Below are positions 717 through 29,750 of a stretch of DNA of 64,000 nucleotides, one piece after another. The notes under the pieces are model-generated. The model did not search any database and had not been told where the DNA came from. It saw only the letters and a list, made by a program, of their open reading frames with translations. The stretch comes from a virus: IMG/VR virus record IMGVR_UViG_3300045988_159010, one strand, 5' to 3'. Made by a program: the position numbers and the translations under genes. Positions within the stretch are counted from its first letter, which is position 1, and each line of letters starts with the position of its first letter.

Positions 717-717
717 G

Positions 718-1059: not shown

Positions 1060-1107
1060 TCCAATCCTCCTAATAGAAAGGGGAGATTTCTCTCCCCTTA
1101 TGATTTA

Positions 1108-3750: not shown

Positions 3751-3774
3751 AACAATTTATTCCTCCTTTATAAA

Positions 3775-4995: not shown

Positions 4996-5007
4996 AAATC
5001 ATTTTCC

Positions 5008-5533: not shown

Positions 5534-5548
5534 AGATTATTCCTCCTT

Positions 5549-6610: not shown

Positions 6611-6635
6611 CTCGTGTTCTCCTTTCTTTAATCAT

Positions 6636-6761
6636 CATCTATAGAGCCGCCATCCCAGCCGCCTGTTGACTTGGAAGTATCTTCTTTGTCAATATCGCCG
6701 CCATCTTTGCCGCCCTTATATGAAAGAATAAACATTTTCATATTGTCCTTCTCCTTTCATA
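6636..6761 (-). CDS. small Gly/Asp-rich ORF (41 aa)
   Basis: AAGGAGAAGGACAAT-ATG RBS; MKMFILSYKGGKDGGDIDKEDTSKSTGGWDGGSIDDD. Confidence 0.25.
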
Positions 6762-6905
6762 TTTAAAATTATTTTATATTGCTCTATACCTGTTGGACCG
6801 AAAATTTCTTAAATGGAATTTTAATTCAAGCATTCGGTTTTAATGGTCCAAGCCGGCCCGAGCACCTATAACCTACTGTCTTTAAAATATATAAAAAAAA
6901 AGATG

Positions 6906-6945
6906 GACTGATTAATCTAATCAGTCCATCTTTATAGAAAGGATG
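6906..6945 (-). terminator. strong intrinsic terminator (13-bp stem GATGGACTGATTA/TAATCAGTCCATC) with A-run on one side and T-run on the other
   Basis: perfect inverted repeat flanked by AAAAAAAAA and TTT; ends the minus-strand tRNA region transcripts. Confidence 0.55.
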
Positions 6946-7338
6946 AAATGCAATGAACGAATTTGAAACGAGTGGCGCGGAACTGAGGTGTCGATCCCCA
7001 TCCCTTTCATAGGACCACTTGTTTTCAAGACAAGGCTTACCGCCGGGCAAGTTAATTCCGCATATCATAATTGGCTATAGACCCTTAGCTATCTATGATT
7101 TAAATACGCCACAATTACTATGAAGCTTAGCGATACCAATTATTTTAATAAACAAGACTCATTGAAAAGCCAAAATAAAAACGCGGAATTTAGCTTACTA
7201 AATCAGCTAAAAAGAAAAAACTTTTCAAAATATACTTTATTTTCTTTATTATACTTTTTCATCTATTAGTAATAAATAAGTATTGTAGAGCCTTTACAGG
7301 CAAAAGTTTGCTGAAAATGAGTCTTAATACGTATGGCA

Positions 7339-7419
7339 TAGGAGCAAGGGATTCGAACCCTGGATGTGCAGCTACAATTAGTTTTGGAGACTAACCCAAT
7401 CGACCACTCTGGCACTCCT
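7339..7419 (-). tRNA. tRNA with anticodon loop CUCCAAA (anticodon CCA, Trp-like) and an unusually long variable arm
   Basis: reverse complement gives 7-bp acceptor stem with two G-U pairs, stem TTAGT/ACTAA around loop CTCCAAA, T-arm GGGTTCGAATCCC; no encoded CCA. Confidence 0.4.
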
Positions 7420-7427
7420 ACATATAA

Positions 7428-7514
7428 TGGCGGAATCGCCGCGACTCGAACGCGGACTACCCAAGAGGTAGGATGGATTAGCAATCCATTGGAATACCAT
7501 TATCCCACGACTCC
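7428..7514 (-). tRNA. tRNA-Ser (anticodon GCU), type II, CCA encoded
   Basis: GGAGTCGTGGGATAATGG...stem ATGGA loop TTGCTAA stem TCCAT; long variable arm; T-arm GCGTTCGAGTCGC; 3' CCA. Confidence 0.65.
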
Positions 7515-7673
7515 AAATATAGAAAAATAGATAGTAAAAAACAAGCATTGCACCAAGGCGTAAAAACTCTATCTATTGTATAGTTTTTGTTCCTTACATA
7601 TTTAAATATATAAGAAAGGATTACCGGTAGCCTGCCGCCTAATAGCAGGATTTCCTATAACCGGACTTTATAT

Positions 7674-7859
7674 TCACACCGTGGCCTCGGTGGAACGAAC
7701 TTTTACAAAATGTTCAGCCAGATGTTTTGGCATCCAAATCAGAGTACCGTCATAAAATCTGAAAAGATAAGTCATAAAATTGTCCTTATCATCAATCTTG
7801 CGGCACTTACCCTTACCATACCTCTTACACCAGACCTTATCTCCTGGATTAAACTTCAT
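7674..7859 (-). CDS. hypothetical protein (61 aa)
   Basis: ORF only. Confidence 0.3.
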   Translation of the reverse strand: MKFNPGDKVWCKRYGKGKCRKIDDKDNFMTYLFRFYDGTLIWMPKHLAEHFVKVRSTEATV

Positions 7860-8051
7860 TATTTTCTCCTTAACAATTTTAACAAAGCCCTAAAATCATT
7901 TGCTGGATTTGAACCAACTCTAAAAAATTTTTGCAGAATTTCTTATTTATCCTATTAAAAATTGCTGTGTGGGCTTTTCATAAAACATTATTAATTATAC
8001 TCATTTAATCAATTAGCGTTACCCAAGATACACCACGTGGAGGTTTGATTA

Positions 8052-8122
8052 ATGTATCTCTTGCGGGAGTGGGATTCGAACCCACGATAACCAGTTTATG
8101 AGGCTGGTGTCTTAACCACTTG
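8052..8122 (-). tRNA. tRNA-Met (anticodon CAU)
   Basis: GCGGGATCGTCAAGTGGTTAAGACACCAGCCTCATAAACTGG...GGGTTCGAATCCCACTCCCGCA; loop CTCATAA. Confidence 0.6.
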
Positions 8123-8189
8123 ACGATCCCGCAATATTAACAAGACAATTTTTATACGTTGCGCTACCAATTACGCTATATCCGATCTT

Positions 8190-8262
8190 CGACCAGACAG
8201 TAGGACTCGAACCTACAACACACGGCTCCCAAAGCAAATTTATAATTGCTGTATTGTCTTTC
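8190..8262 (-). tRNA. degenerate tRNA-like element (T-arm GTAGGTTCGAGTCCTAC present, acceptor pairing poor)
   Basis: T-arm consensus on minus strand but no convincing acceptor stem or anticodon arm. Confidence 0.25.
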
Positions 8263-8267
8263 ATAAA

Positions 8268-8341
8268 TGGTGGAGCCAGAGGGAATCGCACCCTCGACTT
8301 TGAATTAAATTCAACGTTTTCCTACCATAAACTATGTCCCC
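8268..8341 (-). tRNA. tRNA with anticodon UUA (tRNA-Sup(TTA)-like; would decode UAA and by wobble UAG) - candidate suppressor, needs tRNAscan-SE
   Basis: GGGGACATAGTTTATGGTAGGAAAACGTTGAATTTAATTCAAAGTCGAGGGTGCGATTCCCTCTGGCTCCACCA; palindromic anticodon arm TTGAATTTAATTCAA centred on TTA; acceptor 6/7 pairs; CCA encoded. Confidence 0.4.
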
Positions 8342-8415
8342 AAATATGATGGTTATAAAACTTAATCTAATGCAGGCATCAGACTAATAGAACGCTCCAT
8401 CAAGTTCTATGCACC
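8342..8415 (-). promoter_or_regulatory. conserved about 70-nt element upstream of tRNA 8268-8341 containing palindrome ATAGAAC-N10-GTTCTAT (copy 1 of 2)
   Basis: near-identical copy at 9508-9585 upstream of tRNA-Ala. Confidence 0.4.
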
Positions 8416-8445
8416 AGTTGAGTTGTATGTTTTCCGCGAGTGCGG

Positions 8446-8521
8446 TGGCGGATGCAGAAGGGTATGATCCTCCGACCCATTGATTAACAGTCAATTGCTC
8501 TACCAACTGAGCTATGCATCC
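8446..8521 (-). tRNA. tRNA-Asn (anticodon GUU), CCA encoded
   Basis: GGATGCATAGCTCAGTTGGTAGAGCAATTGACTGTTAATCAAT...TGCATCCGCCA; loop CTGTTAA. Confidence 0.6.
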
Positions 8522-8593
8522 ATATTCATAGGGAAGGCTTCTAGAAAACCCGTGTGCTTACCACCCTACGTGTTTGGAATATATCACACTTAA

Positions 8594-8636
8594 TGGTGGA
8601 ACTTGCGAGAGTCGAACTCGCTTTGCCTCAAGCTCC
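8594..8636 (-). ncRNA. 43-nt tRNA minihelix (acceptor stem plus T-arm plus CCA, no D or anticodon arms)
   Basis: GGAGCTTGAGGCAAAGCGAGTTCGACTCTCGCAAGTTCCACCA: acceptor GGAGCTTG/CAAGTTCC, T-stem GCGAG/CTCGC, loop TTCGACT. Confidence 0.3.
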
Positions 8637-8659
8637 AAATATTATAAATTTTTCATAAA

Positions 8660-9331
8660 TTAATAAGAAATAATTTTTTCCCTATTAATTAATTTATATT
8701 TATGAGAAGTTAATTTTTTATGACAAATAGGACATAATATGATTAAATTCTCTAATTCATTGTGTTCTCTATTTTCATTAATATGATGAACTTCTAAAAT
8801 ATCTTTATCTTCATCCCAACCACAGATAGCACATTTATGAGGATAATATTTAAAAGCATTTTTACGATAAGTATATATACTTTCAATATTATTTCCATAA
8901 TGATTTGGTTGAATTTCTTTCAAACCAAACTCTATCCGTTGAGCTAAATCTTTATGTTCTCTACAGCAAAAATATATTCCACTTTTTGAATTATTCAATT
9001 TAGAATTTGGACGAATAAATTTCTTTCCACAATAAGCACATTCTAATTCAGTTCTATTTGCAGAAAATTTTTCATTTTTCTTTTCTTCTGAACATTTAGG
9101 GCAAGAGCATCTTACTTCTTTTGGACCTCGCATAAAACATTCTGCGGATGCTTGAAAAACAATATCATGAATATTGCATTTTAAATCTATTGGTTTAGAT
9201 TTTCCTTTATATTCACTTATAACAAAATATTTATCCCCTACACATTCATAAACTCTTTGTTCAAATTCTTCTTGAGTTAATTTTCTAGGCATTTGATTCA
9301 ACTCCTTTTTTCCTTCTATTATATTTAGCAA
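8660..9331 (-). CDS. HNH homing endonuclease (223 aa)
   Basis: HHINENREHNELENLIILCPICH HNH motif plus Cys-rich Zn fingers; embedded in tRNA array. Confidence 0.7.
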   Translation of the reverse strand: MLNIIEGKKELNQMPRKLTQEEFEQRVYECVGDKYFVISEYKGKSKPIDLKCNIHDIVFQASAECFMRGPKEVRCSCPKCSEEKKNEKFSANRTELECAYCGKKFIRPNSKLNNSKSGIYFCCREHKDLAQRIEFGLKEIQPNHYGNNIESIYTYRKNAFKYYPHKCAICGWDEDKDILEVHHINENREHNELENLIILCPICHKKLTSHKYKLINREKIISY

Positions 9332-9431
9332 AATTTTTGAGGAGTTTAATTAACTTTGCCCGATTTTTATTTTTGTCCACTATTAGCATTACCCATCATC
9401 TACCTCGTGGCGGTTGTGGATCTTAGATGAC

Positions 9432-9507
9432 TGGAACACATGAGAATCGAACTCATCTGCTTTTCTCCTTGCAAGGGAGACGACCACTCCATGCAGTCCC
9501 GTGCCCC
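9432..9507 (-). tRNA. tRNA-Ala (anticodon UGC) with G3:U70 identity pair
   Basis: GGGGCACGGGACTGCATGGAGTGGTCGTCTCCCTTGCAAGGAGA...ATGAGTTCGATTCTCATGTGTTCCA; loop CTTGCAA. Confidence 0.55.
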
Positions 9508-9585
9508 AAATATGATAGTTATAAAACTTAATCTAACCAGATTAATAGAACGCTCTATCAAGTTCTATGTAACAAAATCGCTTAT
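9508..9585 (-). promoter_or_regulatory. second copy of the conserved palindrome-containing element upstream of a tRNA
   Basis: CCCCAAATATGATAGTTATAAAACTTAATCTAA...AATAGAACGCTCTATCAAGTTCTATG matches 8342-8415. Confidence 0.4.
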
Positions 9586-9599
9586 ATCGAGAAAACGAA

Positions 9600-9676
9600 T
9601 GGCGATGCTAAGGGGACTCGAACCCCTGACCTTCGGAGAGACAGTCCGACATTCTAGCCAACTGAACTATAGCACC
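9600..9676 (-). tRNA. tRNA-Asp (anticodon GUC), CCA encoded
   Basis: GGTGCTATAGTTCAGTTGGCTAGAATGTCGGACTGTCTCTCCGAAGGTCAGGGGTTCGAGTCCCCTTAGCATCGCCA. Confidence 0.65.
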
Positions 9677-9690
9677 ATATAAGAATAATT

Positions 9691-10314
9691 TTAATTATTT
9701 TCAATAAATTTCCATTTATAACCATAAGCACTTTGTCTTTTACCTAAACATACAGCGCTTATATGAGTAATATCAGGTTTATTAATAGCTCTACCTGCAC
9801 TTCCAATAGATGGAAATATATTTAAAATTTTTCCAGTTTTTTTATCACATTGAGCAACTTTTTTACCTGATTTAACTAAATTAACTTCTTGTTGAGAATA
9901 AATTTTTTCTTTTTTTTCTTTAAGAATTCTTTCTACACTATCAGAAGAAATTCCTAATTTACGAGCAGTTTCTTCAATATTTTTAATTTCTTGATAAGAA
10001 GCAATAATTAAATCATAATCAAGATACTTTTTACCATCTCCGCCTATTGTAGCATTATATCCCCATTTAAAAGAACCTAATTTTTCAATCCAATAAGTTT
10101 CTCGATTATTAGCATCATCAGTTTCTTCAATTAGTTCAATATGAAAATGTTCTACTCCATATTTTCGCATTGCTGAATATAATGGACGTTTTTCATTGCG
10201 CTCTCTAAAAGCATCTTTACAATGTTCTTTAAAACGTTTTTCAATAGAAAATTCAGTTTTACCAACATAAATTTTCTAATTTATATCATTAATAATCTAA
10301 TAAATGTATGCCAT
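9691..10314 (-). CDS. GIY-YIG homing endonuclease (about 207 aa) with two in-frame TAG codons in the GIY-YIG motif region
   Basis: AAAAAGGAG-N11-ATG; MAYIY-TAG-IINDIN-TAG-KIYVGKTEFSIEKRFKEH (GIY-YIG) continuous with track ORF 9691-10170 (YGYKWKF C-terminal domain). Confidence 0.6.
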
Positions 10315-10398
10315 AATTAAACAGCTCCTTTTTATTTACTTTATTCTACATTAGTTAAAACAAGATACACCGCGTGAAGGTTGTAGAATTTGTATCTC

Positions 10399-10471
10399 TA
10401 CTCCCAGCCGGATTTGAACCGGCGACTCCAGCGTGAAAGGCTGGTGACTTAGACCACTTGTCGATGGGAGC
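10399..10471 (-). tRNA. tRNA-Glu (anticodon UUC)
   Basis: GCTCCCATCGACAAGTGGTCTAAGTCACCAGCCTTTCACGCTGG...GCCGGTTCAAATCCGGCTGGGAGTA; loop CTTTCAC. Confidence 0.6.
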
Positions 10472-10475
10472 ATAT

Positions 10476-10643
10476 TTATTCATCAGAAATCATTTTTTCA
10501 GATTTTTCTTTTTCCTTCGCTCTATCATATTCCATGCCCTTACCTTTCTTGGCAGGCACAATTGATCTACGACGGCGGAACAGAAGATACTCGTTCAACT
10601 CTGTGCTGTCCATTTTAATTGCAGGTTTCTTAGTAGTTGCCAT
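10476..10643 (-). CDS. small basic protein (55 aa)
   Basis: TAAAGGAGATATTTGAA-ATG; MATTKKPAIKMDSTELNEYLLFRRRRS... Confidence 0.3.
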   Translation of the reverse strand: MATTKKPAIKMDSTELNEYLLFRRRRSIVPAKKGKGMEYDRAKEKEKSEKMISDE

Positions 10644-10708
10644 TTCAAATATCTCCTTTATTATTATATATATATTATATAATATTTTTTTTAAATTTTC
10701 AAATTTAT

Positions 10709-10785
10709 TGGTGCAGGATATTGGATTCGAACCAATGACCTCTTGGGTGTAAACCAAACGCTCTAACCAACTGAGCTAATCCCGC
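10709..10785 (-). tRNA. tRNA-Val (anticodon UAC), CCA encoded
   Basis: GCGGGATTAGCTCAGTTGGTTAGAGCGTTTGGTTTACACCCAAGAGGTCATTGGTTCGAATCCAATATCCTGCACCA. Confidence 0.65.
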
Positions 10786-10991
10786 ATACAGTCTATTTAA
10801 CTAAACTACCAAGAAAAATTAAATAGACCTTTATAAAAATTCCTCATTGGGTATGGAGGGTGTATTAAACTGGCTTTTACAGTAAGCCCAGTAAAATGGA
10901 CCTGCCTGACTTCCACAATAATGGTACTATCGGTCCATCTGTCCGCCTGATTTTACAGGGAGTTTATAAGATTTATACTTTTTAACTCAAA

Positions 10992-11124
10992 TGGTGCGCC
11001 AGGCGGGGATCGAACCCGCGTTGCCCTGCTTATGGTGCGGAATATTGGATTTGAACCAATACATTAAAATGCTACTTACATCAATTCCACAAAGGCAGGT
11101 GCCATACCACTTGGCCACTGGCGC
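10992..11124 (-). tRNA. tRNA-Gln (anticodon UUG) interrupted by a 58-nt tRNA-like insertion in the anticodon loop (insert about 11032-11089)
   Basis: Outer gene GCGCCAGTGGCCAAGTGGTATGGCA-CCTGC-CTTTG[insert]AA-GCAGG-GCAAC-GCGGGTTCGATCCCCGC-CTGGCGCACCA has a perfect acceptor and Gln-type D-arm; the insert GTGGAAT...TTGGTTCAAATCCAAT-ATTCCGCACCA has its own acceptor-like stem and T-arm. Confidence 0.45.
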
Positions 11125-11475
11125 ATATCGCATTTTAGAGGTTCCGGACCCTCCTGAGCAGCGTCACTCAAATAAGATTTTGCCACCTAACCTTTAAAAT
11201 CTTATCAAAAAACAAACCGGTTTTTTAGCTGAACCTTTAACTCCCTTTCCGCTTTTACTTATATGTCAAGAAACAGCCAAAGAGTAAGTATAAAAAGACA
11301 ACATATGAAGAATTTGTTTATAGACAAGCTTCAAACACTCGTCTTGCGGCCATATTATTTTATAGTCAAGTAAGTAATAACTTCAACCGCATTTCTTTAA
11401 CTTAAATAACCTTTAATAATAGTCCTATGTTAAATAATTAGTTATGGGCGACTATTATTTCCCAGCTTTAATTAA

Positions 11476-11545
11476 TCCTTCTATTGGAATTGAACCAATA
11501 CCTCTACCTCTTTCAGGCAGCATGCTTCCATTACACCAAGAAGTA
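11476..11545 (-). tRNA. tRNA-like locus, anticodon not assignable by eye
   Basis: T-arm ATTGGTTCAATTCCAAT on minus strand; acceptor 6/7; anticodon arm ambiguous. Confidence 0.3.
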
Positions 11546-11629
11546 ATATACATATGGCTTATTTACATAACGATGGAGCCACCAACCATCGAGCCTTGAT
11601 TATAGTGAGTATAGCTACTACTTCACTGT

Positions 11630-11659
11630 TGGTACCGGTGAAAGGATTCGAACCTTCAC
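11630..11659 (-). ncRNA. tRNA 3'-half fragment (T-arm plus acceptor 3' strand plus CCA) without a 5' half
   Basis: GTGAAGGTTCGAATCCTTTCAC-CGGTACCA; no complementary GGTACCG upstream. Confidence 0.25.
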
Positions 11660-11669
11660 ACCTTATATA

Positions 11670-11945
11670 TTAAATATTTTTCCAATCTTCATCAGAAATT
11701 TTTTTAATTTTTAATGACTAATAAGGTAAATCATAATTTTTACACCATTTTCTGACAGCATTATCAGAAACTTCATACATTTTCCCTATAGTTACAAATG
11801 GTGTAGTTCTAATTAATTCTTTTAAAATTTCTCTATCTGGAGATTTAGAATTTTGTCTAAATTTAGATGCACAAGATTTACATCTAATAGCTTTTAAACA
11901 TATCTCTTTTCCACAATCACAACAATAATTTTTCTTTTGAATATG
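11670..11945 (-). pseudogene. orphan C-terminal fragment of a homing-endonuclease-like DNA-binding domain (Zn finger CxxC...CxxC plus HTH), no start codon, abuts tRNA-Leu
   Basis: frame ...CCDCGKEICLKAIRCKSCASKF...MYEVSDNAVRKWCKNYDLPY-TAG-SLKIKK... begins inside the tRNA with no ATG/GTG/TTG plus RBS. Confidence 0.25.
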
Positions 11946-12030
11946 ATTGGTGCGGGATGAGGGACTCGGACCCTCACACCTGTCGGCCTCACCGTCTAAA
12001 GATGAGTTGTCTACCTATTCCAGCAATCCC
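11946..12030 (-). tRNA. tRNA-Leu (anticodon UAG), type II, CCA encoded
   Basis: GCGGGATTGCTGGAATAGGTAGACAACTCATCTTTAGACGGTGAGG...GGGTCCGAGTCCCTCATCCCGCACCA; loop TTTAGAC; 85 nt. Confidence 0.55.
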
Positions 12031-12483
12031 GCGTATTTACCGATATTTGCTCCACTATTTCCATTTTGAATTGAATGACAATTAGGACATAAAATTTGTA
12101 GATTATTTAAATCATTATCAAAATGGTTTCCATTTTTATGATGTAATTCTAAAGGTAATTTAATTCCTTGCCACATAGAAATACCACAAATTTCACATTT
12201 GTCTTTTTTCAATCCATCTTTTACTAATTTTTGTCTTAAAACAGAAGAGCTAATATACTTATGATTATCAATATAATAAATAGCTGGCTTATAACATCGA
12301 GGATTTTTATTCTATCCTTTTTTATAAGGCTATCCCTTATATTCAATATTCATTTTCTCCAAATAAGAATTTAAAGTTTCAGGTTTACAATGCAACTATT
12401 CACATATATAACGTTTAGATTTTTCTTCGTTTATCCACTAACGAATTTCTTTTTCTTTTTCTAAAATATCTGAACGAGCCATA
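12015..12483 (-). CDS. HNH endonuclease (about 155 aa) with four in-frame TAG codons; 3' end overlaps tRNA-Leu
   Basis: AAAGGAGAGATTGTT-ATG; MARSDILEKEKEIR-TAG-WINEEKSKRYICE-TAG-LHCKPE...-TAG-...-TAG-...KDKCEICGISMW...ELHHKNGNHFDNDLNNLQILCPNCH (HNH); track shows only the last 65 aa. Confidence 0.55.
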
Positions 12484-12812
12484 ACAATCTCTCCTTTCAT
12501 AATATATTAGAAATTAAAAATTATTCATTAATGGAATTGAACCAAAAAATTTTCAGTTCAATTCCATTCGCCTATGCCATTCGGCTACACCGGCTTATGG
12601 TGGAAAGAAGTATTTCACCTTTTATAGCACGCTTCTCCCCGTTCCCGTGCTACCTCTCTCCCAATTAGCTTGATTACAAGAGGATTTCATTATGAAGTTC
12701 ATCATAACTACCCGATTTCCCTTTGCCTCAGTTTATTTTTAATTGGTCTATTGCCAACGGCAGGTGACTAATCTGCCTAGTTCAAATCGGAAACCCCATG
12801 TGTAAGACCAAA

Positions 12813-12890
12813 TGGTGGGACAGGGAGGTATCGAGCCTCCATCCTTTGGTTTTTCAGACCAATGCTCCGACCTCGTAAGCTACTGTCCCA
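12813..12890 (-). tRNA. tRNA-Phe (anticodon GAA), CCA encoded
   Basis: GGGACAGTAGCTTACGAGGTCGGAGCATTGGTCTGAAAAACCAAAGGATGGAGGCTCGATACCTCCCTGTCCCACCA. Confidence 0.6.
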
Positions 12891-12920
12891 TACAAATGAG
12901 AATTTATTTCTCATTTATTT

Positions 12921-12960
12921 TGTATATATATTTTATAATATTTTTTTTAATTTTTCAATT
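12921..12960 (-). promoter_or_regulatory. copy of the recurrent AT-rich promoter-like motif (TATATATATTTTATAATATTTTTTT...) upstream of tRNA-Phe
   Basis: same about 40-bp motif as at 24348, 36089, 41538, 43975, 50881 and others. Confidence 0.45.
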
Positions 12961-13581
12961 TTTCAATTTTTCTTTAATTACAATATGCCAAGTCATATTA
13001 TTAGTATTACTTCTTTTTCTTAATTCACCAGTTGTTTTACTGATAAAATAATCAAAAGGATTAAATACTGAACAATAAGTACCAAATAAATTTTGATCAG
13101 AACAAAAAACTTTATTATTTTCTTGATAAAATGCTGTATTAAATTTTAAAAGAGTTTCTTTATCTTTAATTGGAGCCGATGAAGTGCCGCTTCTTTTGCA
13201 ATAAGGCTTTTGAATTTCAAAAGTATAATTATTAAAAAAATCATCAAAAGCCACAAGAGAAATATTATTATTATTAATAACAATAAAAGCCCCTACTTGT
13301 TTAGCTCTATAATGTTCTTTTACAAAATTTATACAAGTTTCTTCATCATTTTTACCCAAATAAATAGCTTCAGCATATGGGTTATTACTGATGGTACTTT
13401 TAGTAAATTGCCCGCATCGAGCACCATTAGTAATATCTTTTACTTCAATATAATAATTATATAAAGGAGAATAAATATCTGAAATAGTAGAATCATTACG
13501 TCCTTGGTAAACTGCATCATTATCATAGTTATTTTTAAACCATTCAAATGCTTTCTTTTCACTTTTCTCCCAATTCATCAT
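12955..13581 (-). CDS. hypothetical protein (208 aa) translationally coupled downstream of the C5-MTase; possible restriction or MTase-associated partner
   Basis: AAAGGAACAATATT-ATG; start overlaps MTase stop region; no recognisable motif. Confidence 0.4.
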   Translation of the reverse strand: MMNWEKSEKKAFEWFKNNYDNDAVYQGRNDSTISDIYSPLYNYYIEVKDITNGARCGQFTKSTISNNPYAEAIYLGKNDEETCINFVKEHYRAKQVGAFIVINNNNISLVAFDDFFNNYTFEIQKPYCKRSGTSSAPIKDKETLLKFNTAFYQENNKVFCSDQNLFGTYCSVFNPFDYFISKTTGELRKRSNTNNMTWHIVIKEKLKN

Positions 13582-14518
13582 AATATTGTTCCTTTATCCC
13601 TTTAAAAATATGAATTAACACATTTCTATCAATGGCATTGCCCAAGCAAAAACCCACTTCTCTAGGGGTTAAAACAGAACAAATCTTTTCTGCTTCTGCT
13701 TTAGTCCAACCCATTACTTTACAAATCTCAATTGGAGTAAGTTTATAAATACTATTATTACGAAGATACAAACCACCGCTTGATCCGGCTTTTCCTCCAC
13801 CAGAAGCAGTTAATGTAACTCCTTGTCCAAATATAGAATAAATTCGATTTCCTTGACCACCATTTTTATAATCACAGAGTTTTTTAGCTCCATTATAATA
13901 TGGTGTAGTAATATCACTTGGGCCATCATAACTATCAATGAAATATTCTTCGTTAATTGGCTCTAAAAAATCTTTTAAAGTAGTTTTAACATTTTCAGCT
14001 AAAGGGAAAATAAACTTTTTTAAAGGAGAAATTACTGAAACCATGAATACACGATCCCTAATAGTTGCTCCGCCATATTCATAAGCTTTTATTTTCTTCC
14101 AACTAGATACATAACCTAATTCAGCTAAACTATTAATCCACTCTTGAAATTTTGGCATAAAAGTATTATTACAAATATTGGCCACATTTTCCATTAAAAG
14201 AATTTTTGGCTTTGGAGAAGAAAGCAAGAGACGATATACCTCATAAATTAATGAAGAATTTTTTCCTTGAAAACCTTCTTGCTTCCCTGCAATAGATAAA
14301 TCAGTACAAGGGAAAGAATAAGTCCAAATATCTGCATAGGGTAAAATATCAATTTTTGTGATATCACCAAAATTATTATATTCACCATTCAAAACTTTAT
14401 ATGCTTTCAATGGTCGTTCATCAATTTCGCTAATACCTATTGATCTAATATTTGGATCAATTTTAACCAAAGCTGAAATCTATGTCCCAATTCCCGCAAA
14501 TAATTCAATAATAGTCAT
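13559..14518 (-). CDS. DNA cytosine-5 methyltransferase (Dcm-type, about 319 aa); in-frame TAG at 14480-14482
   Basis: GAGGGAAAGA-ATG; motif I ELFAGIGT-TAG-ISALV, motif IV FPCTDLSIAG, ENV motif LLMENV; track ORF truncated at TAG. Confidence 0.65.
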
Positions 14519-14573
14519 TCTTTCCCTCACTCTCTATATAATATAATAATATTTTTATTAAAAATCAAATTTA

Positions 14574-14813
14574 TTAAACTTCAGAATGACGAACAAAAAA
14601 TTCAATAAATAAACCTTCATCTTGCTTACTATCACAAAAAAGTTCCAGTTCATCGCCATGCTGACCAAGTAATGCACCAAGTGCAATATACTGTGAAAGT
14701 GCAGATTTCATATTGTATCTATCGCCCTGCGGACTAACCAGCCATACATTACTATGAGCACGATTAACTGCTGAAATAAAATCTTCAACCTGCTTAATAT
14801 TTGTCAACTTCAT
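14574..14813 (-). CDS. hypothetical protein (79 aa)
   Basis: ORF, moderately GC-richer than surroundings. Confidence 0.4.
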   Translation of the reverse strand: MKLTNIKQVEDFISAVNRAHSNVWLVSPQGDRYNMKSALSQYIALGALLGQHGDELELFCDSKQDEGLFIEFFVRHSEV

Positions 14814-14829
14814 TATTTTAATTCCTTTC

Positions 14830-14988
14830 TATTGGAATATGGTGCTCCCGTCGGGATTTGAACCCACATCTGGCGATTTGGCCCAAAATGTTAGATTTGA
14901 ACTTACATCTTTCTTGCGCATAAACTATTTTACCATTTAAACTAATTTTGGATAAGTCGCCGGCTCTGACCAATTGAGCTACGAGAGC
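14830..14988 (-). tRNA. tRNA (Ile-like, anticodon UAU if spliced as CTTAT...AA) interrupted by about 73-nt insertion (about 14879-14951) in the anticodon loop
   Basis: GCTCTCGTAGCTCAATTGGTCAGAGCC-GGCGA-CTTAT[insert CCAAAAT...ATTTTGG]AA-TCGCC...GTGGGTTCAAATCCCGACGGGAGCACCA; insert has terminal 7-bp inverted repeat and an internal GTTCAAATC T-loop-like motif. Confidence 0.4.
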
Positions 14989-15079
14989 ATTTATTTAATT
15001 TCTTATTGATTACTTATATATTATATTATATTTTTTTAATTTTTTCAAATTAAGAAATTTACCCAAGACTTTTTATACT

Positions 15080-15154
15080 TGGCTCCAAGGAAGGAATTTG
15101 AATCCTTATTTTCAGAATTAACTCTGATGAATTATCCAGTTATTCGACCACGGA
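15080..15154 (-). tRNA. tRNA-like gene with palindromic anticodon arm TCAGAGTTAATTCTGA (possible UAA-anticodon Leu or degenerate)
   Basis: T-arm AGGATTCAAATTCCT, CCA encoded, acceptor 6/7; anticodon loop apparently 6 nt. Confidence 0.3.
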
Positions 15155-15260
15155 AAAAAGTTTAAGTTGCTGTAAAAGCCTTTCTCTTTTCATATAAATA
15201 TTATATAATATTTTTTATTAAAAATCAAATAATTATTTTATTCAAACAAGACTTATTTGG

Positions 15261-15345
15261 TTTGGTTCCGCTGGGTTTAACCGCTTCCCTACCTCCGCCA
15301 TATAGTGGTGGGGAGGGCAGGATTCGAACCTGCGTAGCATTCGCG
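15261..15345 (-). ncRNA. rearranged tRNA halves: a 3'-half (T-arm plus CCTCCCCACCA) lies upstream of a 5'-half-like segment (GGCGGAGGTAGGGAAGCGGTTAAACCC)
   Basis: T-arm GCAGGTTCGAATCCTGC plus CCA at 15306-15333 with no 5' partner; 5'-half-like sequence on the wrong side. Confidence 0.2.
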
Positions 15346-15423
15346 ACGGATTTACTGTCCATTTCTTTGCTGTTAAAGTCTTTATTTTCTTTATTTTGTA
15401 TATATATTATATATTAATTTTTA

Positions 15424-16125
15424 TTAAATATCAAATTTATAAATTTTTTCTTGTGAATGATTATCAATAATTTCAATTAATTCATTAAGATAATTTTTAT
15501 TTTCTGCAACTTTATCAATTTCAATAGCTAAATTTAAAGCTGTATAACTAAAAGAGAGCTATTCTTTAATTCCAGGAATTTTTTTTATTTCTTCAGTAAA
15601 TTGCTATAAATTACTTTTATTCAAATAAAAATTTCCCAACAATAAAAATAAATTAGTTTTACCATTAATTAAAAAATAAATCTAATCTAAAATTTTCCAA
15701 AATTGTTTATCTATTTTTTTAAAATTATTAAATAGTAATTTTAAACAATAATTTATATAACTAATATTTTGTTCAAAATTAAAATTATTAAAATCAGTGT
15801 ATATTAACTAATTATCAAAATTATAATTATTATTAATAATCTACAATAATAATTTATATCTATTAATAAAAATTTTATCTTGAATTTCCATAATTTTATA
15901 TAATTCTATACCTTTATATTGTTTTAATATATCTTTATGTAAAATATACTTTTGAAATAAATATTCATAAATAGATAAAATCTAAATATCCATATCATAT
16001 TTTTGAAAGTTTATATTTTTATAATCACTTATACAAAATAAAATATTATTTTGTATAAGATACATATAATATATTTTACAATTATATATATTTTCAATAA
16101 ATGTTTTTAAATTATAATGGTTCAT
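15424..16125 (-). CDS. Asn/Ile/Lys-rich hypothetical protein (about 233 aa) with at least 7 in-frame TAG codons; last gene of the rSAM cassette
   Basis: continuous frame MNHYNLKTFIENIYNCKIYY...KYDMDI-TAG-ILSIYEY...IEIIDNHSQEKIYKFDI-TAA only if TAG is sense; start assignment uncertain. Confidence 0.35.
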
Positions 16126-16762
16126 TCCTACCAGTTCCACTACATGTGCCAGTACAACTTGTGCATAATCCAGAACAACTTCCTCCACACAATCCAGTAC
16201 AATCGTTAGCACAATGTCTTGTACAGCTACCGCTGCATCCGCTACACCCAGTCTGGCATCCACCTGAGCAAGAACCACTGCATCCATCACAACTGCCACT
16301 ACAACTGCTTCGACATCCGCCTCTGCAAGTGTTTTGGCAGCCTCCTTGGCAAGTATTCTTACAACTGCCTAAACAAGTTCCCTGACATTGTACTCCACAA
16401 CTTTCACTACAACTAGTAGAACATAATCCAGTGCAATAAGCTGAACATCCAGTATTCGAATCAGTTAATCCCATAGCTTGATAAGCTGTAATTTTTGCCT
16501 CTAATGTACTTAAATCATCATCTTTAATAACATTTATATTTTCATTCTGATTTTCAATATTTATTGCCGCCATAGGTTCTACCAGTTTTGTTATATGTTC
16601 TTTTGAAATAACTTTTCCATTATTAGGCTAAGTAGTATAATCATAAGAAGTCCCTCCATATGAACTTACACTACCTATATATTTACGACGTAAACATTCA
16701 GCCTTTATTTTTTTCTTTAATTCATTGAATCTATCAGAAGTTATTGTCGTGCCTATTTTCAT
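16112..16762 (-). CDS. Cys-rich repeat protein (about 216 aa): about 100-aa N-domain followed by about 28 tandem CxxxC repeats; one in-frame TAG (about 16631)
   Basis: AAGGAGGCAATGACAA-ATG; ...GGTSYDYTT-TAG-PNNGKV...CSAYCTGLCSTSCSESCGVQCQGTCLGSC...CTGTCSGTGRNEPL; immediately downstream of rSAM/SPASM gene. Confidence 0.55.
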
Positions 16763-18074
16763 TTGTCATTGCCTCCTTTATTATATTATATTCATCCTAA
16801 GAGATAATTTTTAATGCTTTTTCCATATCTCCATTAAATTTAAATCGTTTATTCGAGTTTATTTTTTTTAAAATAGAATTTAAATAATATAAAGAAGCTA
16901 GAACTATAGCATAATGCATATCACAAATATAAGTAACTCTTTTATTAACATTACCTGTTTCTTGATAATTATAAGCTGTACACCAAGAGCATCCTCCAGA
17001 AATTTCACAATCTAAACATTTTTGAGGAGATTGACTAATAACTGTTATTTCAGATAAATCTTTTAATCTATTGATGGTTAAATTATCTTGGCCTATTCCC
17101 TAATAAATATCTCCAATATAATATTCTGGCTGATTACTTATGCTATCTTCCATATAACGTAAACAGGGATAATATTTACCTTTCCAATTTAAGGCTAACA
17201 TACGACCATTCCCGCCGCACCAATTATCATTAGATAAATTTTTACTTCCATCATTAATATAAAAAATAGATAAATAAACTTTATCCCACAAATCATTATT
17301 TAATAAATAATCAGCAATTTTTTTTAACTAATAATATAATGTAGTGGCATGGTTAAGTTCCCAACCTTTTTCATACACACAATTTAGATTGATTTGACTA
17401 TAACCATTGTTTATCATTTCTAAAACAGCGTCATATAAATAATCTATATTAAATGGAGAGATAGTCATTTTACTCCCGATCCATTTGTTATAATTATGGC
17501 TATAATGTAATGCGGCGGACAATGCTTTATCATAACTACCACTACCATCAGGGAAAACTCTACAAGCATCATGTAATTTTTTATTTCCATCAATAGAAAT
17601 TGATAAACTTAAATTTTCATTATTTTTTTTAATATACTCTTGTACTTTTGGTTCAAAATATAAAATACCATTAGAACTAATTGAAATTTTATATTTAGTG
17701 ACCCAAGGATGCCGCAATTCAATCATTTTATTAATAAAATAATCAGTAATCTAATCAATTAATTCAATTTCTAAAAATGGCTCTCCACCTATAAATTCTA
17801 TTACTACTCCTGGTATTTTATAAGAGTCAATATAATTAATAACTTTACTGTCTCTTGTTAGTATCTAATCAATCATCTATTTAGCTGTATTAAAGGATAA
17901 TTTATGTTTTCCTTTATGTCCTTGATAACAATAAACACAATTTAGACAACAATCATCTGTAACCTAAAAAGTTAATGTAAATACAGCCTAAGAATTTAAG
18001 CAATCATTAGAATATAAACGACTTATAAAATCAGAAAATTCTTCAGGAATATTAACTATCTTAGGAAATAACAT
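16735..18074 (-). CDS. radical SAM enzyme with SPASM-type C-terminal domain (about 446 aa), about 8 in-frame TAG codons
   Basis: GAGGTAAATATTG-ATG; CxxxCxxC at VTDDCCLNCVYCYQGH; ISISSNG...SISIDGNKKLHD core; C-terminal Cys cluster CGGNGRMLALNWKGKYYPCLRYMED...CLDCEISGGCSWCTAYN; track shows three separated fragments joined only by reading TAG as sense; ends TGA at 16735. Confidence 0.65.
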
Positions 18075-18342
18075 CAATATTTACCTCGTTTGTCTAAAAA
18101 TCTAAATTCCAATTACAAGTTTGATTTCCAATTACTGGTTTAATATAATTATTTTCTAATTCTAATTTAGCTAATTCATATTCAGCAAATAATTCTATAT
18201 ACTCATTATGATAATCATCAAAAGCTTTATTTCTAATATTTTGTCTAATTAAAAATTGACATAAATTTTTTCTAGCTTCAATTTCATAATTTAATTTCTA
18301 AAGATAATTTACTTCTTCTTGAGGAATTATAATCTTCTTCAT
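18061..18342 (-). CDS. small protein (about 93 aa, two in-frame TAG) immediately upstream of and overlapping the rSAM start; possible precursor or partner peptide
   Basis: TAAGAAAGGAATAAAAAT-ATG; MKKIIIPQEEVNYL-TAG-KLNYEIEARKNLCQFLIRQN...NQTCNWNLDF-TAG-TNEVNIDVIS-TAA. Confidence 0.4.
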
Positions 18343-18449
18343 ATTTTTATTCCTTTCTTATATAAGAAATTTAATTATTTAATTAATATAATATGCCCTA
18401 TATAAATAATTATAACATAAAAATAAGAGAAAGTCAATTTGACTTTCTC

Positions 18450-18758
18450 TTACAAACCAAGCTTTTCAATTAAAGCTTTTAAATTTTCTTCTTCTTCTGG
18501 ACTAATTTCTGTAGCCTTTTTCGCAGGCTGAATTGTTGCTCCATCTTCAAAATTAAGTTCATTATTACCAAAATCCATAGAACCAAAAGATTCAACTGGA
18601 GTTTTTGGACAAGTCAGACTAATTGCAATCTGAATATATTGTCCATTTTCTTTAGCTCGCACATAATACTTTTTATCATAAGATCCGAGGAAATCTTCGC
18701 CAAATGCTTCTGCAATTTTTTCTACAACAGCATCTTTAGCAATACTACCTTTTGCCAT
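18450..18758 (-). CDS. hypothetical protein (102 aa)
   Basis: ORF; start overlaps upstream stop in TAATG arrangement. Confidence 0.45.
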   Translation of the reverse strand: MAKGSIAKDAVVEKIAEAFGEDFLGSYDKKYYVRAKENGQYIQIAISLTCPKTPVESFGSMDFGNNELNFEDGATIQPAKKATEISPEEEENLKALIEKLGL

Positions 18759-20083
18759 TATTCATTATTCTCCCTATCAAATAAAATTTCATCATAACAA
18801 GCTTCACAGTAGTAAGCATTGTTTTCTTTATCATAAATTAAATCTTTTTTATCATAATACATATTACAATTATCACATATCTAATAATTGTCTCCGCAAC
18901 TGCGGCATACATAACCATCATCATCATCTAATGATATTGCTTCAGGAATATAGATACGTCTACCACATTCTCTACAGAAAGTAAAATCTTCTGTTTCTTC
19001 TGTACCATATTTAAGTTCGCAATCAATACAAAGCATTGTATCTGTTAAAACACAATCATTTTTACCACAAATACAACATTTTACATCATGTCCTATATTA
19101 ACTTTAGTAGTAGTACGAGTTCTTGGAAGAATTAATTTATCTTGCGGAATACCTTCTTCATGCCAATAAGGTTCACTATAAGCAATACTAAACCAATAGT
19201 CATATACAGTAGAATGAAGAGGGTCATTATAATGTAAAGGATTTTTTGGGTCAACAATAACCTTAATATCTGGAGTCATTACATATCCAGTAGGCAATAA
19301 ACGGCTATCATTAGAGAAAATTTTATCATTTATTGTAAATGTATTATACTTTTCATGACACCAATCAGTAAAACGGTATCCTTGCCCGAAAAATGTTTCA
19401 TATAATTCAAGAGCAAAATCTTGCAATCCTTTACTTTCATAAGGATAATGCCGACCTGAAATAACCATAGTGTCATCATCAGATACATGAAGAAGCATAC
19501 GCCACTTCTTATCTGCCCATGGTACATCATCTGGGAATCTAGGTAAAACCGCATCATGTTCACTCTTAATATAGCATATAATTGTACAATTATCTGCCAT
19601 ATAAGATAAATTACCAGCACGGTATTCTCCATCAAGGGCATGGCATGACCGCCAATTATGTGTATTTTCACTCAAACTAAGATAATCCAATGGATGAACT
19701 GACATACAAAAATATCCACTAATTTTTGTATTTTGAATAAGCATACTAGCTTTATCTTGTATTTCAGTAAGAATTTCCTTATCTTCTACAAAATATTTAA
19801 ATGCTTTAATTATTTTCATTCCTTTTGGAATAACAGTTCCATTATTCATTGAATAATCTTCATTTAAAATATTATTATAAAAATTTTTTCTATTATTTTC
19901 AACAAAATCTCTTAATTCAAATAAGCCATAACGCCAACGAATATTATCAATAAAACAATCTAATTCAGCTTTTTTATCATCTTCTGAAATAGACATTGTA
20001 ATAGGTGTATGGCTTTGATAAATTAATTTATTACCAGGAAGCCTACTATAAAATTTGCATTTATTCTCTTCCCAATCATTCAT
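18758..20083 (-). CDS. large paralogue A of a three-member family (about 441 aa) with HPLDY motif and C-terminal multi-CxxC Zn-ribbon tail; TAG at 18881-18883
   Basis: SVHPLDYLSLSENTHNWRSCHALDGEYRAGN conserved with 22678-24321 and 29751-31415; C-terminal CCICGKNDC...CIDCE...CREC...CRSCGDNY-TAG-ICDNCNMYY...CEACYDE. Confidence 0.55.
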
Positions 20084-20163
20084 TAATTTATCAATATTTA
20101 AAAGGTTAATGTCCAGCCCCTATGAATAGGCAATAACCTTCTTTACTTGTTCTTTAATTTCAT

Positions 20164-21162
20164 TTAAATTACAACAGGGACTCGACATTTATCACATACT
20201 CTTTCTCTCATATTATTTGAATAAAATAAATTATAGCACTTTTCACATTGATGAATATTAGGATCAAGGGCCAAACATTCAGGACATACATGAACTTTTA
20301 CTCCATCAATATCAAGAGGAAAATCTTCCCACTCATAATACAACTGATTACAAAAACTACAATTAAGAAGTTTATCATCATCAAAATCATAAGGCATATG
20401 ATATTTATTAGTTAATGTAATCCACTGAAGATATTCCTTACTAGGAATAAACTTATATTTATCTGCATTTTCGATATCATCAAGCATTTTACATACTTTA
20501 TTAATTGTATTATACAATGTTCTAATATGTAAATCTTCATTTTGAGTATGTTCATGATGATAGCCAACTGATAAATTTACTCCGGCAATTTCCCATTCAG
20601 GCATAATAATACTAATATCTGTAAATGATCCAATTGCTTGCCTAAAACCAAAACTTTCAACATAATCTACAAATGTAAAATTTTCACATTCATAGAAAAC
20701 ACAATCTTTTTCACCAGCTCTATCCAGCTCAATCATATATTTAATATCTGGGGCTACTGGATGTGCTTCAATGAACATATGGGCACCATAACCGCCCATT
20801 TCTTCATCTGTTGTAAAAAGGACATAAGGTCTATACTTCTTACGCAAAATTTGAATAATCGCAAAAACACCTGCTCTATCGTCTGCTCCAAGACCTTCCT
20901 TGCCTTTATAAACAGCTCTTTTCTCATTATAAGTAAATTGACGAATTGGCTGTCTAAATACAGTATCTACGTGTGCGATAAGCATTACAGGAATATTGCC
21001 TTCAGCGTATACATAATCTTCTGTAATTTCTACATTAGAATATTTATTAGATACAAAATCACCAAGAGCTTTTAAAAGACCTACTTCACTAATCTTGAAT
21101 AGCCCTTCCAAAAGCCCTCTACAATTTTCAGTAAAATCAGGAACTAAAACTTTTTTACCCAT
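20164..21162 (-). CDS. M20/M28/M42-family zinc metallopeptidase with C-terminal Zn-ribbon tail (332 aa)
   Basis: HVDTV, GADDRAG, TTDEEMG metal-ligand motifs; C-terminal CSFCN...CPEC...CEKC...CDKC. Confidence 0.6.
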   Translation of the reverse strand: MGKKVLVPDFTENCRGLLEGLFKISEVGLLKALGDFVSNKYSNVEITEDYVYAEGNIPVMLIAHVDTVFRQPIRQFTYNEKRAVYKGKEGLGADDRAGVFAIIQILRKKYRPYVLFTTDEEMGGYGAHMFIEAHPVAPDIKYMIELDRAGEKDCVFYECENFTFVDYVESFGFRQAIGSFTDISIIMPEWEIAGVNLSVGYHHEHTQNEDLHIRTLYNTINKVCKMLDDIENADKYKFIPSKEYLQWITLTNKYHMPYDFDDDKLLNCSFCNQLYYEWEDFPLDIDGVKVHVCPECLALDPNIHQCEKCYNLFYSNNMRERVCDKCRVPVVI

Positions 21163-22677: not shown

Positions 22678-24321
22678 TTAAATCGCAATTGGCGTATTGC
22701 CATTATAGAAACGCTCAGGATAACGACGAATAGCATAAGGATAATTGTTAATTATAGTAGAATAAGGATCATTAGAAATTATCTTTTTAGCTTCTACATT
22801 TAAATCATCTTCTTCAATCAAGAGAGCTGTCATACCATAATAAGGACCGCCATCTAATCGAATTGTTTCAGCTCTAATATCAATATCTCCTAGATACTTT
22901 AAATATTCTTTATTGGCAAGACAATCAGCACAAATATAATGTTCATCATAGTCAACATTAATAGTTTGATTATCGATGTGTCCAACGAATACCGGAGTAA
23001 AATCATCCTCAAAATGAGCATCTTCACAGCACATACATCTAGGCAAATCATGATAACAATCTTCACAAACTAATTCGCCATCTACTTCAATTGAATTACT
23101 TGCATTAATTCGTTCGCCACAGCAATAACAATACTCAGGTGGATCGCATTCTTCGCAAACAACTGCTTCAGTATCATCATCCCAATAATCTTTTCCGCCG
23201 CAACACATACAAGTCATTAAACCAGAATAATTAATTGCGAATGTACGATATTTATTGTCTGGTGGATTAATTGAAAAAATTCCATAATTTTCTGTATTAC
23301 CAAAATCATTATACATTTCATTTGTTTCAAAATCCAACAGGAAACGATTATCTTCATCTTCTTTATCTTGCCAAGCTTCGATATAAGAGCAACTATCTAA
23401 ACTTTCTTGTGGCTTTTTTCTATTATAACGCCATTCGGTTTTTTCTTCAACCAAATTAGCAAGCCAATTCACAAGAGCTTTATCAAATGCAATATTGTAA
23501 TAAGGATAAGATTTTACAGAACAAATAGCTTTTGGATGAACAATAATCAATTCTCTCCAACTTTTGGAAGTCCACTCAATTGAAGTATTTGCTGGATAAT
23601 AAGGTTTAGTAGTAATATATGCTACAACAACTAATGGACTATTCATCATTTCAATAGTACCAGCACGATAACTTCCCGGTCCTTGAGTCCAATTCATACA
23701 ACTTTCCCAACAATTTGCATTATCGCTCATAGTCATATAATCCAAGGGATGAATAGACAAAGTAAATTTAATTTTAGATTTACGTACTTCAGTAATACGT
23801 GAAACATGATTGCGAAAAATTTCAAAATCAGGCAAATCAAATTCTTTAGCCATTTTCTGAAGAACTTTCATTACCTTAGCTCCTTCTGGAACTTTAACTA
23901 CTTTACCATCTTTATTGTGATAAGTAAATCCTTTAACAACTCTATTAGTAAAAAGTTGATAAGCTTGAGTTAAATTATATATCGCATGCCTTGTTGCATA
24001 AGTATTTTCAAAATAAGTAGTATCAGATTCAAATAATCTACGAAGATTTGTAATAAAATTGATACCAGGATTAGTGCTATAGAGATACTCATTAACTTCT
24101 CTTACTTTTTTGTTATCTCCATCTTCAACCTGGATTTCCTTCTCCAACATTAACTTTTCGCCAAAAATATTAAATAGAGTTTGTTTACTCTTATTCCATT
24201 CTCGAAGGATATAATCAAGAGATGCTTTGAGTTTAATAGGGGAATTAACGCCACCCCATGTTTCAATATATTCAGTAATATATTTCTTATCTTGTGCCGT
24301 TAATGCTTCATAAGGTGTCAT
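22678..24321 (-). CDS. large paralogue B (547 aa) with HPLDY motif and C-terminal multi-CxxC tail
   Basis: SIHPLDYMTMSDNANCWESCMNWTQGPGSYRAGTIEMMNSP; CMCCGGKDYW...CEECDPPEYCYCCGE...CEDCYHDLPRCMCCE. Confidence 0.55.
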   Translation of the reverse strand: MTPYEALTAQDKKYITEYIETWGGVNSPIKLKASLDYILREWNKSKQTLFNIFGEKLMLEKEIQVEDGDNKKVREVNEYLYSTNPGINFITNLRRLFESDTTYFENTYATRHAIYNLTQAYQLFTNRVVKGFTYHNKDGKVVKVPEGAKVMKVLQKMAKEFDLPDFEIFRNHVSRITEVRKSKIKFTLSIHPLDYMTMSDNANCWESCMNWTQGPGSYRAGTIEMMNSPLVVVAYITTKPYYPANTSIEWTSKSWRELIIVHPKAICSVKSYPYYNIAFDKALVNWLANLVEEKTEWRYNRKKPQESLDSCSYIEAWQDKEDEDNRFLLDFETNEMYNDFGNTENYGIFSINPPDNKYRTFAINYSGLMTCMCCGGKDYWDDDTEAVVCEECDPPEYCYCCGERINASNSIEVDGELVCEDCYHDLPRCMCCEDAHFEDDFTPVFVGHIDNQTINVDYDEHYICADCLANKEYLKYLGDIDIRAETIRLDGGPYYGMTALLIEEDDLNVEAKKIISNDPYSTIINNYPYAIRRYPERFYNGNTPIAI

Positions 24322-29671: not shown

Positions 29672-29750
29672 ATCTCTCCCATCCTTTCTATATATATTAT
29701 ATCAAATTTTTTATAAATTTTCGAGTATTCAATTTTGGCAAGAATTTAAA

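Follow-up and report, generated by a model that had tools for sequence, protein, structure and literature searches.

A stretch of 64,000 nucleotides of viral DNA (IMG/VR record IMGVR_UViG_3300045988_159010; the window) carries on its minus strand, between positions 15424 and 18342, a compact group of genes (the cassette) that is a recoded, phage-borne instance of a known system, curated in protein-family databases but experimentally unexplored. By analogy with the nearest characterized enzymes, a radical S-adenosylmethionine (SAM) enzyme with a small helper protein is likely, in this system, to introduce staples into a protein in which every fourth residue is a Cys. We assign a probability of about 0.6 to the reading that the cassette is a phage-borne "CXXX-repeat target" system acting by iterative thioether cross-linking; that its product belongs to the virion or the tail is the more speculative part of this reading. 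The cassette comprises four overlapping co-directional open reading frames (ORFs), identified by ORF calling and translation with TAG read as an amino acid and named g1 to g4 from 5′ to 3′ (Table 1). An earlier inspection of the letters alone (the original prediction) had proposed here a radical SAM/SPASM enzyme with a Cys-rich substrate; it was right in kind, overstated the novelty of the system and was wrong on g1 and g4.

Gene g2 encodes, as judged from its sequence, a radical SAM enzyme with the full SPASM auxiliary-cluster signature that is a member of NCBIfam family TIGR04115 ("radical SAM peptide maturase, CXXX-repeat target family"). The match scores 427.7 bits for a cut-off of 350 (E = 4.4e-128) and spans positions 3–359 of the 359 in the profile; g2 also matches phrog_1802 (E = 8e-64). 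In an alignment of 14 homologues the radical SAM CxxxCxxC motif (C42, C46 and C49) is invariant, as is the seven-Cys SPASM signature (C286-x12-G299-x4-C304, C353-x2-C356-x5-C362-x2-C365 and C384). Of the Pfam profiles, Fer4_12 passes its cut-off (23.2 bits for 22) and Radical_SAM lies just below (28.2 for 29.5). The nearest solved structure is that of CteB (5wgg; E = 1.4e-33), over an alignment that includes the CteB SPASM region. Because this alignment begins at CteB residue 82 and omits the first 81 residues, which hold the recognition element (RRE) that CteB uses as a maturase of peptides that ribosomes synthesize and that are then modified post-translationally (RiPPs), g2 is predicted to have no N-terminal RRE domain. 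The next-best families are all Cys-thioether maturases for which g2 scores below the respective cut-offs: PapB (NF047865; 159.4 of 340 bits, E = 1e-46, the second-best family match), SCIFF (TIGR03974; 105.9 of 425), CcpM (TIGR04068; 98.2 of 500) and QhpD (TIGR03906; 80.7 of 453). With 63.6 bits for a cut-off of 349, g2 is not a member of the anSME family TIGR03942, and no tRNA-modifying enzyme family of NCBIfam or Pfam was matched. Homologues of g2 already bear the TIGR04115 family name in JGI and NCBI annotations, and the predicted substrate has its own curated model, TIGR04114 (PF27846), so that the claim of an unrecognized system does not hold. The nature of the enzyme was correctly foreseen, including its second Cys cluster.

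The predicted substrate of g2 is encoded by the adjacent g3, an assignment borne out by this adjacency and by the match of g3 to the TIGR04114/PF27846 target family. Of the 28 Cys in the protein, 27 fall in the 102 residues 106–207. They delimit 26 intervals, 23 of the CX3C and three of the CX2C type, with spacers rich in Gly, Ser and Thr; the regular array described originally as 28 CxxxC repeats is thus real, its count being slightly lower. No tandem repeat was found in g3 at the DNA level. The array opens with an entry motif, C106-x3-C110-T-G112-L-C114, whose C106, C110, G112 and C114 are invariant across 17 diverse substrate homologues (general form C-x3-C-(T/S)-G-(L)-C). In the alignment of these substrates the preceding N-terminal domain (N-domain) is marked by a "YGG..YDYT" block and by E22, R25 and R26, which are invariant. 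No relatives of this domain were found among PDB sequences or PHROGs, and we propose that it serves for recognition or attachment. The match of g3 to TIGR04114 is marginal (21.0 bits for a cut-off of 20, E = 3e-4); the only other NCBIfam match is TIGR04117, and Pfam gives none, PF27846 (tSAM_targ_Cxxx_rpt) being recorded, with the flag "weak", on P0121, a protein 98% identical to g3. The match to phrog_6085 has an E-value of 2e-7. No metallothionein, ferredoxin or keratin-type family of Pfam or NCBIfam was matched. The sequence cluster of g3 holds 192 near-identical members, found on contigs of up to ~190 kb. A conserved domain of ~105 residues followed by an invariant entry motif indicates that the substrate is a protein and not a short peptide. 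None of the identities that the original prediction had set against itself (an enzyme without a SPASM domain, an anSME-like or tRNA-modifying enzyme, a metallothionein- or keratin-type Cys protein) was found.

A scan of viral contigs returned at least 100 relatives, with 45–94% identity, a recurrence of the cassette far beyond chance; 80 loci were retained for counts. A co-directional CX3C-rich ORF lies near the enzyme gene in 74 of them, the other six ending at contig edges. These ORFs code for 216–829 amino acids (aa) with 26–86 Cys. The N-domain of g3 was detected in 41 of the viral loci and in five bacterial ones, and a g1 homologue stands immediately upstream from the enzyme gene in 60, as well as in bacterial prophage loci. 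These sequence comparisons show g1, g2 and g3 to be the conserved core of the system, a trio that recurs at hundreds of loci in phages and prophages. In INPHARED, consulted for cultured phages, no close homologue was found: the best match, 35% identical, comes from uncultured faecal contigs, and the radical SAM genes of jumbo phages are ~26% identical. Close bacterial orthologues (at least 37% identity) are confined to Clostridia/Bacillota, for example Neglectibacter timonensis, and their location in prophages is suggested by flanks that match the viral loci. In the cultured strain N. timonensis SN17 a complete cassette (locus L082) stands behind the tail-fibre genes of a prophage.

Since its homologue precedes the enzyme gene directly in three quarters of the viral loci, g1, described originally as merely a 93-aa peptide, is best regarded as a conserved, folded accessory protein and a core component. 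Its family comprises 934 representative clusters at E ≤ 1e-3, and its predicted fold consists of a first β-strand, a long α-hairpin and a β-hairpin (predicted local distance difference test score (pLDDT) 95.9), with no likeness found to an RRE or to any annotated protein. We propose that it docks or chaperones the substrate. Membership of a curated family was considered and discarded, as neither g1 nor 13 diverse homologues matched any NCBIfam or Pfam model at E ≤ 1; a third TIGRFAMs entry, the "CXXX repeat peptide modification system protein" (TIGR04116), was not among the matches of g1 or of these homologues either. In the representative library, apparent fusions of g1 seem for the most part to be over-extended or out-of-frame gene calls (P0389, P0270 and P0384), and P0330, a substrate fused to g1, may be a read-through of adjoining genes; none was used as evidence. 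Gene g4, which had been counted as part of the cassette, was rejected as a core component: its homologues are restricted to the closest relatives, L001–L003 (three of the 80 loci), it is missing from the syntenic locus L072, and it matches no family in NCBIfam, Pfam or PHROGs. We class it as a lineage-specific passenger or accessory gene.

In smaller phages and in Clostridia prophages the cassette sits among tail-fibre genes. It directly follows baseplate-wedge and tail-fibre genes in loci L027, L083, L025, L028 and L005, which represent several unrelated phage backbones, and its 3′ neighbour is an endolysin gene in L027 and a tail protein gene (phrog_5302) in L005. One large clade (L041–L069 type, e.g., L041 2708–5191) has substrates in which a pair of glycine-rich domains of the ALK/LTK type (PF12810; E = 2e-96) is joined to the Cys array.

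Other features of these loci can be added. The L005 tail protein (9655–11526) contains the segment YRGIENPWGNVYDWIDG, which resembles the C-type-lectin/formylglycine-generating-enzyme-like fold known from receptor-binding proteins that are targets of diversity-generating retroelements. Loci of the L041–L069 type have, just upstream, paralogues with glycine-rich domains only. An additional small conserved ORF (~95–130 aa; 44 loci), not present in the window, accompanies the cassette in clades of this type. In L071 five consecutive Cys-repeat ORFs (68–4634; 172–533 aa with 31–76 Cys each) precede a single maturase gene (6001–7206), which suggests that one enzyme may serve several substrates.

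The cassette genes are translatable only when TAG is read as a sense codon, and the sequence comparison identifies this codon as Gln because the TAG positions of g2 match Gln columns of its homologues: Gln is found at column 37 in 12 of 13 homologues, at column 108 in eight and at column 249 in six. The conserved Q of the MetK motif "DKVCDQVSD" is likewise encoded by TAG in a SAM synthetase gene of the window. Among the 48 window ORFs checked, 39 terminate with TAA, nine with TGA and none with TAG. Altogether 17 in-frame TAG codons are present in the cassette, a frequency of 17.2 per 1000 codons as compared with 2.3 in 45 other ORFs (7.5-fold), and its GC content is 25.1% versus 35.7% in the same ORFs. 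No suppressor tRNA with a CUA anticodon was found within the window. ORF calling with the standard code splits g2 into fragments, and the cassette is a clear case of genes missed by such annotation. The description of four co-directional, overlapping, TAG-recoded genes at 15424–18342 was accurate; for g2 the start side was correctly placed at 18074 and the end, given as 16735, is 1 nt short of the position that includes the TGA stop codon.

The genes overlap by 14 nt (g1/g2), 29 nt (g2/g3) and 14 nt (g3/g4), and Shine-Dalgarno-like GAGG/AGGAGG sequences are found 5′ of g2 and of g3. A strong terminator-like hairpin with a 14-bp stem (18453–18423) closes the gene upstream from g1. It is overlapped by a near-consensus promoter-like sequence, TTGACT-17-TATAAT with a TG extension (18437–18409), recognized by its consensus match alone; promoter-like sites are not enriched in the window as a whole (30 found for 28.7 expected in shuffled sequences). 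The presence of these two elements upstream from g1 suggests that the cassette is a transcription unit of its own.

Table 1. Cassette genes, parts of the Cys-repeat protein and putative control region (window coordinates).
Feature	Position	Strand	Description
g1	18061–18342	minus	93 aa, 2 in-frame TAG; accessory protein
g2	16734–18074 (including TGA stop)	minus	446 aa, 8 in-frame TAG; radical SAM/SPASM enzyme, TIGR04115
g3, whole gene	16112–16762	minus	216 aa, 1 in-frame TAG; Cys-repeat protein
g3, N-terminal domain	16448–16762	minus	residues 1–105
g3, Cys-repeat core	16142–16447	minus	residues 106–207; predicted substrate region
g4	15424–16125	minus	233 aa, 6 in-frame TAG; 13.5% GC, Asn/Ile/Lys-rich
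Control region 5′ of g1, intergenic	18409–18453	minus	terminator-like hairpin and promoter-like site

The likeness of the cassette to the TIGR04115 plus TIGR04114/PF27846 pair lies in an enzyme scoring over the family cut-off, a target protein with an every-fourth-Cys array that matches the target model, and the adjacency of their genes. This pair of families was defined by comparative genomics only. The cassette departs from it in that its target, at 216 aa and with a conserved 105-residue N-domain, is a protein and not a short peptide, in its TAG recoding, and in a partner, g1, that matches no curated model. The ranthipeptide thioether synthases, among them the SCIFF maturase CteB and PapB, share with g2 the radical SAM plus SPASM architecture and have Cys-rich substrates. 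PapB acts iteratively on CX3-spaced motifs (CX3D). The scores given above make g2 a member of neither the SCIFF nor the PapB family; it differs from CteB by the absence of the N-terminal RRE, and from both by a phage-encoded protein substrate with a 27-Cys array and no conserved Asp acceptor. A precedent for a protein substrate is QhpD, which introduces several Cys-to-carbon thioethers in the QhpC subunit of quinohemoprotein amine dehydrogenase, a protein subunit and not a released peptide; here the score of g2 is far under the family cut-off, the genomic context is unrelated, QhpC is not repetitive and the cross-links differ in number. The CefB "Cys-every-fifth" maturase (NF038107) is also one half of a pair recognized by comparative genomics, in which a SPASM enzyme goes with a substrate whose Cys recur periodically, but g2 matches it weakly (52 bits for a cut-off of 600) and the period is five instead of four, which sets the two families apart. 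Two features by which ranthipeptide and sactipeptide systems are recognized are lacking: an RRE (PqqD-like), fused or stand-alone, is absent from the cassette, which also has no short precursor, and neither the cassette nor the related loci inspected include a peptidase or ABC transporter gene. Of the two descriptions offered originally, RiPP-like or protein-crosslinking, the latter suits the cassette better than a classical RiPP system would. An M28-like peptidase gene is found at 20164–21162, 2 kb upstream from the cassette.

The chemistry of CteB, PapB and QhpD is Cys-to-carbon thioether formation. On their model, g2 would dock on the ~105-residue N-domain of g3 and on the entry motif C-x3-C-T-G-L-C, and g1 would be a subunit apart, for docking or as a chaperone; this mode of docking is proposed because g2 appears to lack the RRE of its characterized relatives. 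The enzyme would then proceed iteratively along the Cys array. At each step reductive cleavage of SAM would generate a 5′-deoxyadenosyl radical; by taking up a hydrogen from a carbon of the repeat, in the backbone or in a side chain, it would leave a carbon radical there, which the thiol of an adjacent Cys, held on an auxiliary Fe–S cluster, would trap to give a thioether. The expected product is a densely stapled Gly/Ser/Thr/Cys rod, insensitive to redox conditions and resistant to proteases. More speculatively, it may be a late-expressed virion or tail-associated protein and not a secreted peptide: a cross-linked protein associated with the virion is favoured by substrates of protein size, by their fusions to other domains and by the tail-module context, to which the window's own tail-fibre-like genes (718–6610) may be added, and late expression is suggested by a TAG density higher in the cassette than elsewhere in the window. 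A more specific version, which we regard as tentative, holds that the CX3C proteins are tail-fibre or baseplate parts of the virion whose thioether ladder is made before assembly and provides a redox-proof substitute for disulfides in phages of strict anaerobes, g1 being a stand-alone docking subunit that replaces the RRE.

Several observations weigh against this reading. The Pfam SPASM profile remains under its threshold on g2 (13.5 for 21.5 bits). The acceptor in PapB substrates is Asp at +4, and the corresponding position of g3 is Cys. The AlphaFold2 model of g3 is uninformative (pLDDT 36), the alignment behind it holding only four homologues. A literature search brought up no publication on the TIGR04115/TIGR04114 family, whether on its biochemistry or on its biology; a 2026 preprint about Cys-rich repeats in eukaryotes turned out to have no bearing on it. 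With respect to a virion role, the cassette adjoins, in the lineage of the window (L003 and L072), genes of unknown function and an island of tRNA and homing-endonuclease genes, not tail genes, and the nearest tail-fibre-like gene of the window is ~8.8 kb away. Moreover, cargo genes ("morons") classically insert where tail-fibre genes meet lysis genes, and position alone is no proof of a structural role. Distant bacterial members of the enzyme family (L089 and L091) have a longer enzyme and precursors of 72–88 aa, as is typical of RiPPs.

These last points lead to a serious rival of the virion reading, although we consider it unlikely on balance: the cassette could be a set of cargo genes whose RiPP-like product is released, with the N-domain as a long leader and the modified core freed at lysis or by cleavage to act as a bacteriocin, a signal or an anti-competitor factor. 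Its appeal comes from the cargo-prone tail-fibre/lysis slot, the short precursors of the distant relatives and the fact that the nearest characterized enzymes, PapB, SCIFF/CteB and CcpM, are RiPP maturases; the promoter-like site and terminator of its own, as well as a base composition that deviates from that of the rest of the window, also agree with it. A released product is more difficult to reconcile with the loci examined, where no protease, ABC exporter or immunity gene stands beside the core, and with substrates of 216–829 aa whose N-domain is much longer than usual leaders. The array is, in addition, fused to large glycine-rich domains in one clade, and inspection of the g3 sequence reveals no signal peptide.

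It is improbable that the Cys array serves mainly to bind metals or Fe–S clusters, as a metallothionein-like protein or a redox or electron carrier, and that the enzyme performs another modification or loads clusters. A density of 27 Cys per 102 residues with CX3C/CX2C spacing could chelate metals, and the absence of a defined g3 fold in the AlphaFold2 model is what metal-dependent folding would give. This possibility loses weight because g3 matches no metal-binding family of Pfam or NCBIfam; the Gly/Ser/Thr-rich spacers lack the Lys/Pro patterns of metallothioneins, and the strict genomic coupling to a SPASM enzyme whose nearest relatives all form Cys–carbon thioethers speaks for cross-linking. 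A richness in A+T and in TAG relative to the window might finally mark the cassette as a decaying, non-functional remnant of horizontal acquisition in which TAG codons are true stops. That view is effectively refuted by the match of TAG to conserved Gln in homologues, the absence of TAG among the stop codons of the window, the full-length relatives of 94–98% identity that recur on many ~190 kb contigs and the integrity of all catalytic Cys. Iterative thioether cross-linking of a protein substrate is the reading that we retain; worth following in the cassette are its association with phage tail modules, the size of the substrates, which are proteins, and the conservation of g1 as a partner.

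The remaining features of the window are summarized here. The ORF at 36880–39003 (minus strand), ~19 kb from the cassette, is a genuine SAM synthetase gene with the MetK N, M and C Pfam domains; the idea that it sustains a SAM need of the cassette is unsupported. The encoded protein has 707 aa, including an insertion of ~320 aa inside the GGG/AFSGKD motif that is bounded by Cys and Asn-Cys ("GGG-CVNGDTEFL ... FITGN-CFSGKD") and looks intein-like in sequence. Directly downstream from the cassette, a tRNA island (7334–15360, minus strand) holds 11 tRNAs called by ARAGORN and extra ones called by Rfam or by ARAGORN in intron-tolerant mode, including a 146-nt intron-like tRNA (14843–14988), together with TAG-rich homing-endonuclease ORFs (GIY-YIG, 9691–10314; HNH-like, 11670–12500) and a DNA methyltransferase gene (13559–14518). 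One of these tRNAs (8271–8341, minus strand) was recognized by Rfam with 48.5 bits and missed by ARAGORN; by eye its anticodon loop could be AUUUAAU (UUA, ochre-type), a candidate for which RNAfold gave no cloverleaf (z = 0.18). Just 3′ of the g4 stop codon, segment 15300–15362 (minus strand) resembles the 3′ half of a tRNA (GGTTCGAATCCTGCCCTCCCCACCA); no complete tRNA was called, and the segment could be what is left of a tRNA or of something like an attachment site.

Three paralogues of 476–572 aa (18758–20188, 22678–24321 and 29697–31415, minus strand) have a common core, "HPLDY..SDN...W.SC", and C-termini dense in CxxC zinc-ribbon-like pairs. The first, which matches phrog_18912, shows synteny with the cassette in both L003 and L072. 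At 48486–50070, in an AT-rich patch (26–28% GC) of the plus strand, opposite to nearly all genes of the window, two ORFs of 173 and 189 aa contain five and nine in-frame TAG codons, a density equal to that of the cassette. Five consecutive ORFs at 718–6610 (minus strand) include tail-fibre-like genes; four of them start with MA[DE]..L/IK.R.....W....L..GE.G, and the two motif-bearing ORFs that were scanned have PHROG tail-fibre or structural matches.

The enzyme–substrate pair to which g2 and g3 belong has already been catalogued. Its distribution (more than 100 viral contigs) identifies the system as mainly a trait of phages and prophages of gut and rumen Clostridia. If the virion reading is true, the product would be the first structural protein of a virus cross-linked by radical SAM chemistry and the most heavily thioether-stapled protein known, with up to ~26 links in g3 and over 60 in some relatives. 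Provided that the proposed chemistry is right, these proteins would be cross-linked to an exceptional density, RiPP-type radical chemistry would extend to the structural biology of viruses, and the engineering of stapled peptides would profit from the invariant entry motif and from a docking partner that is a protein of its own.

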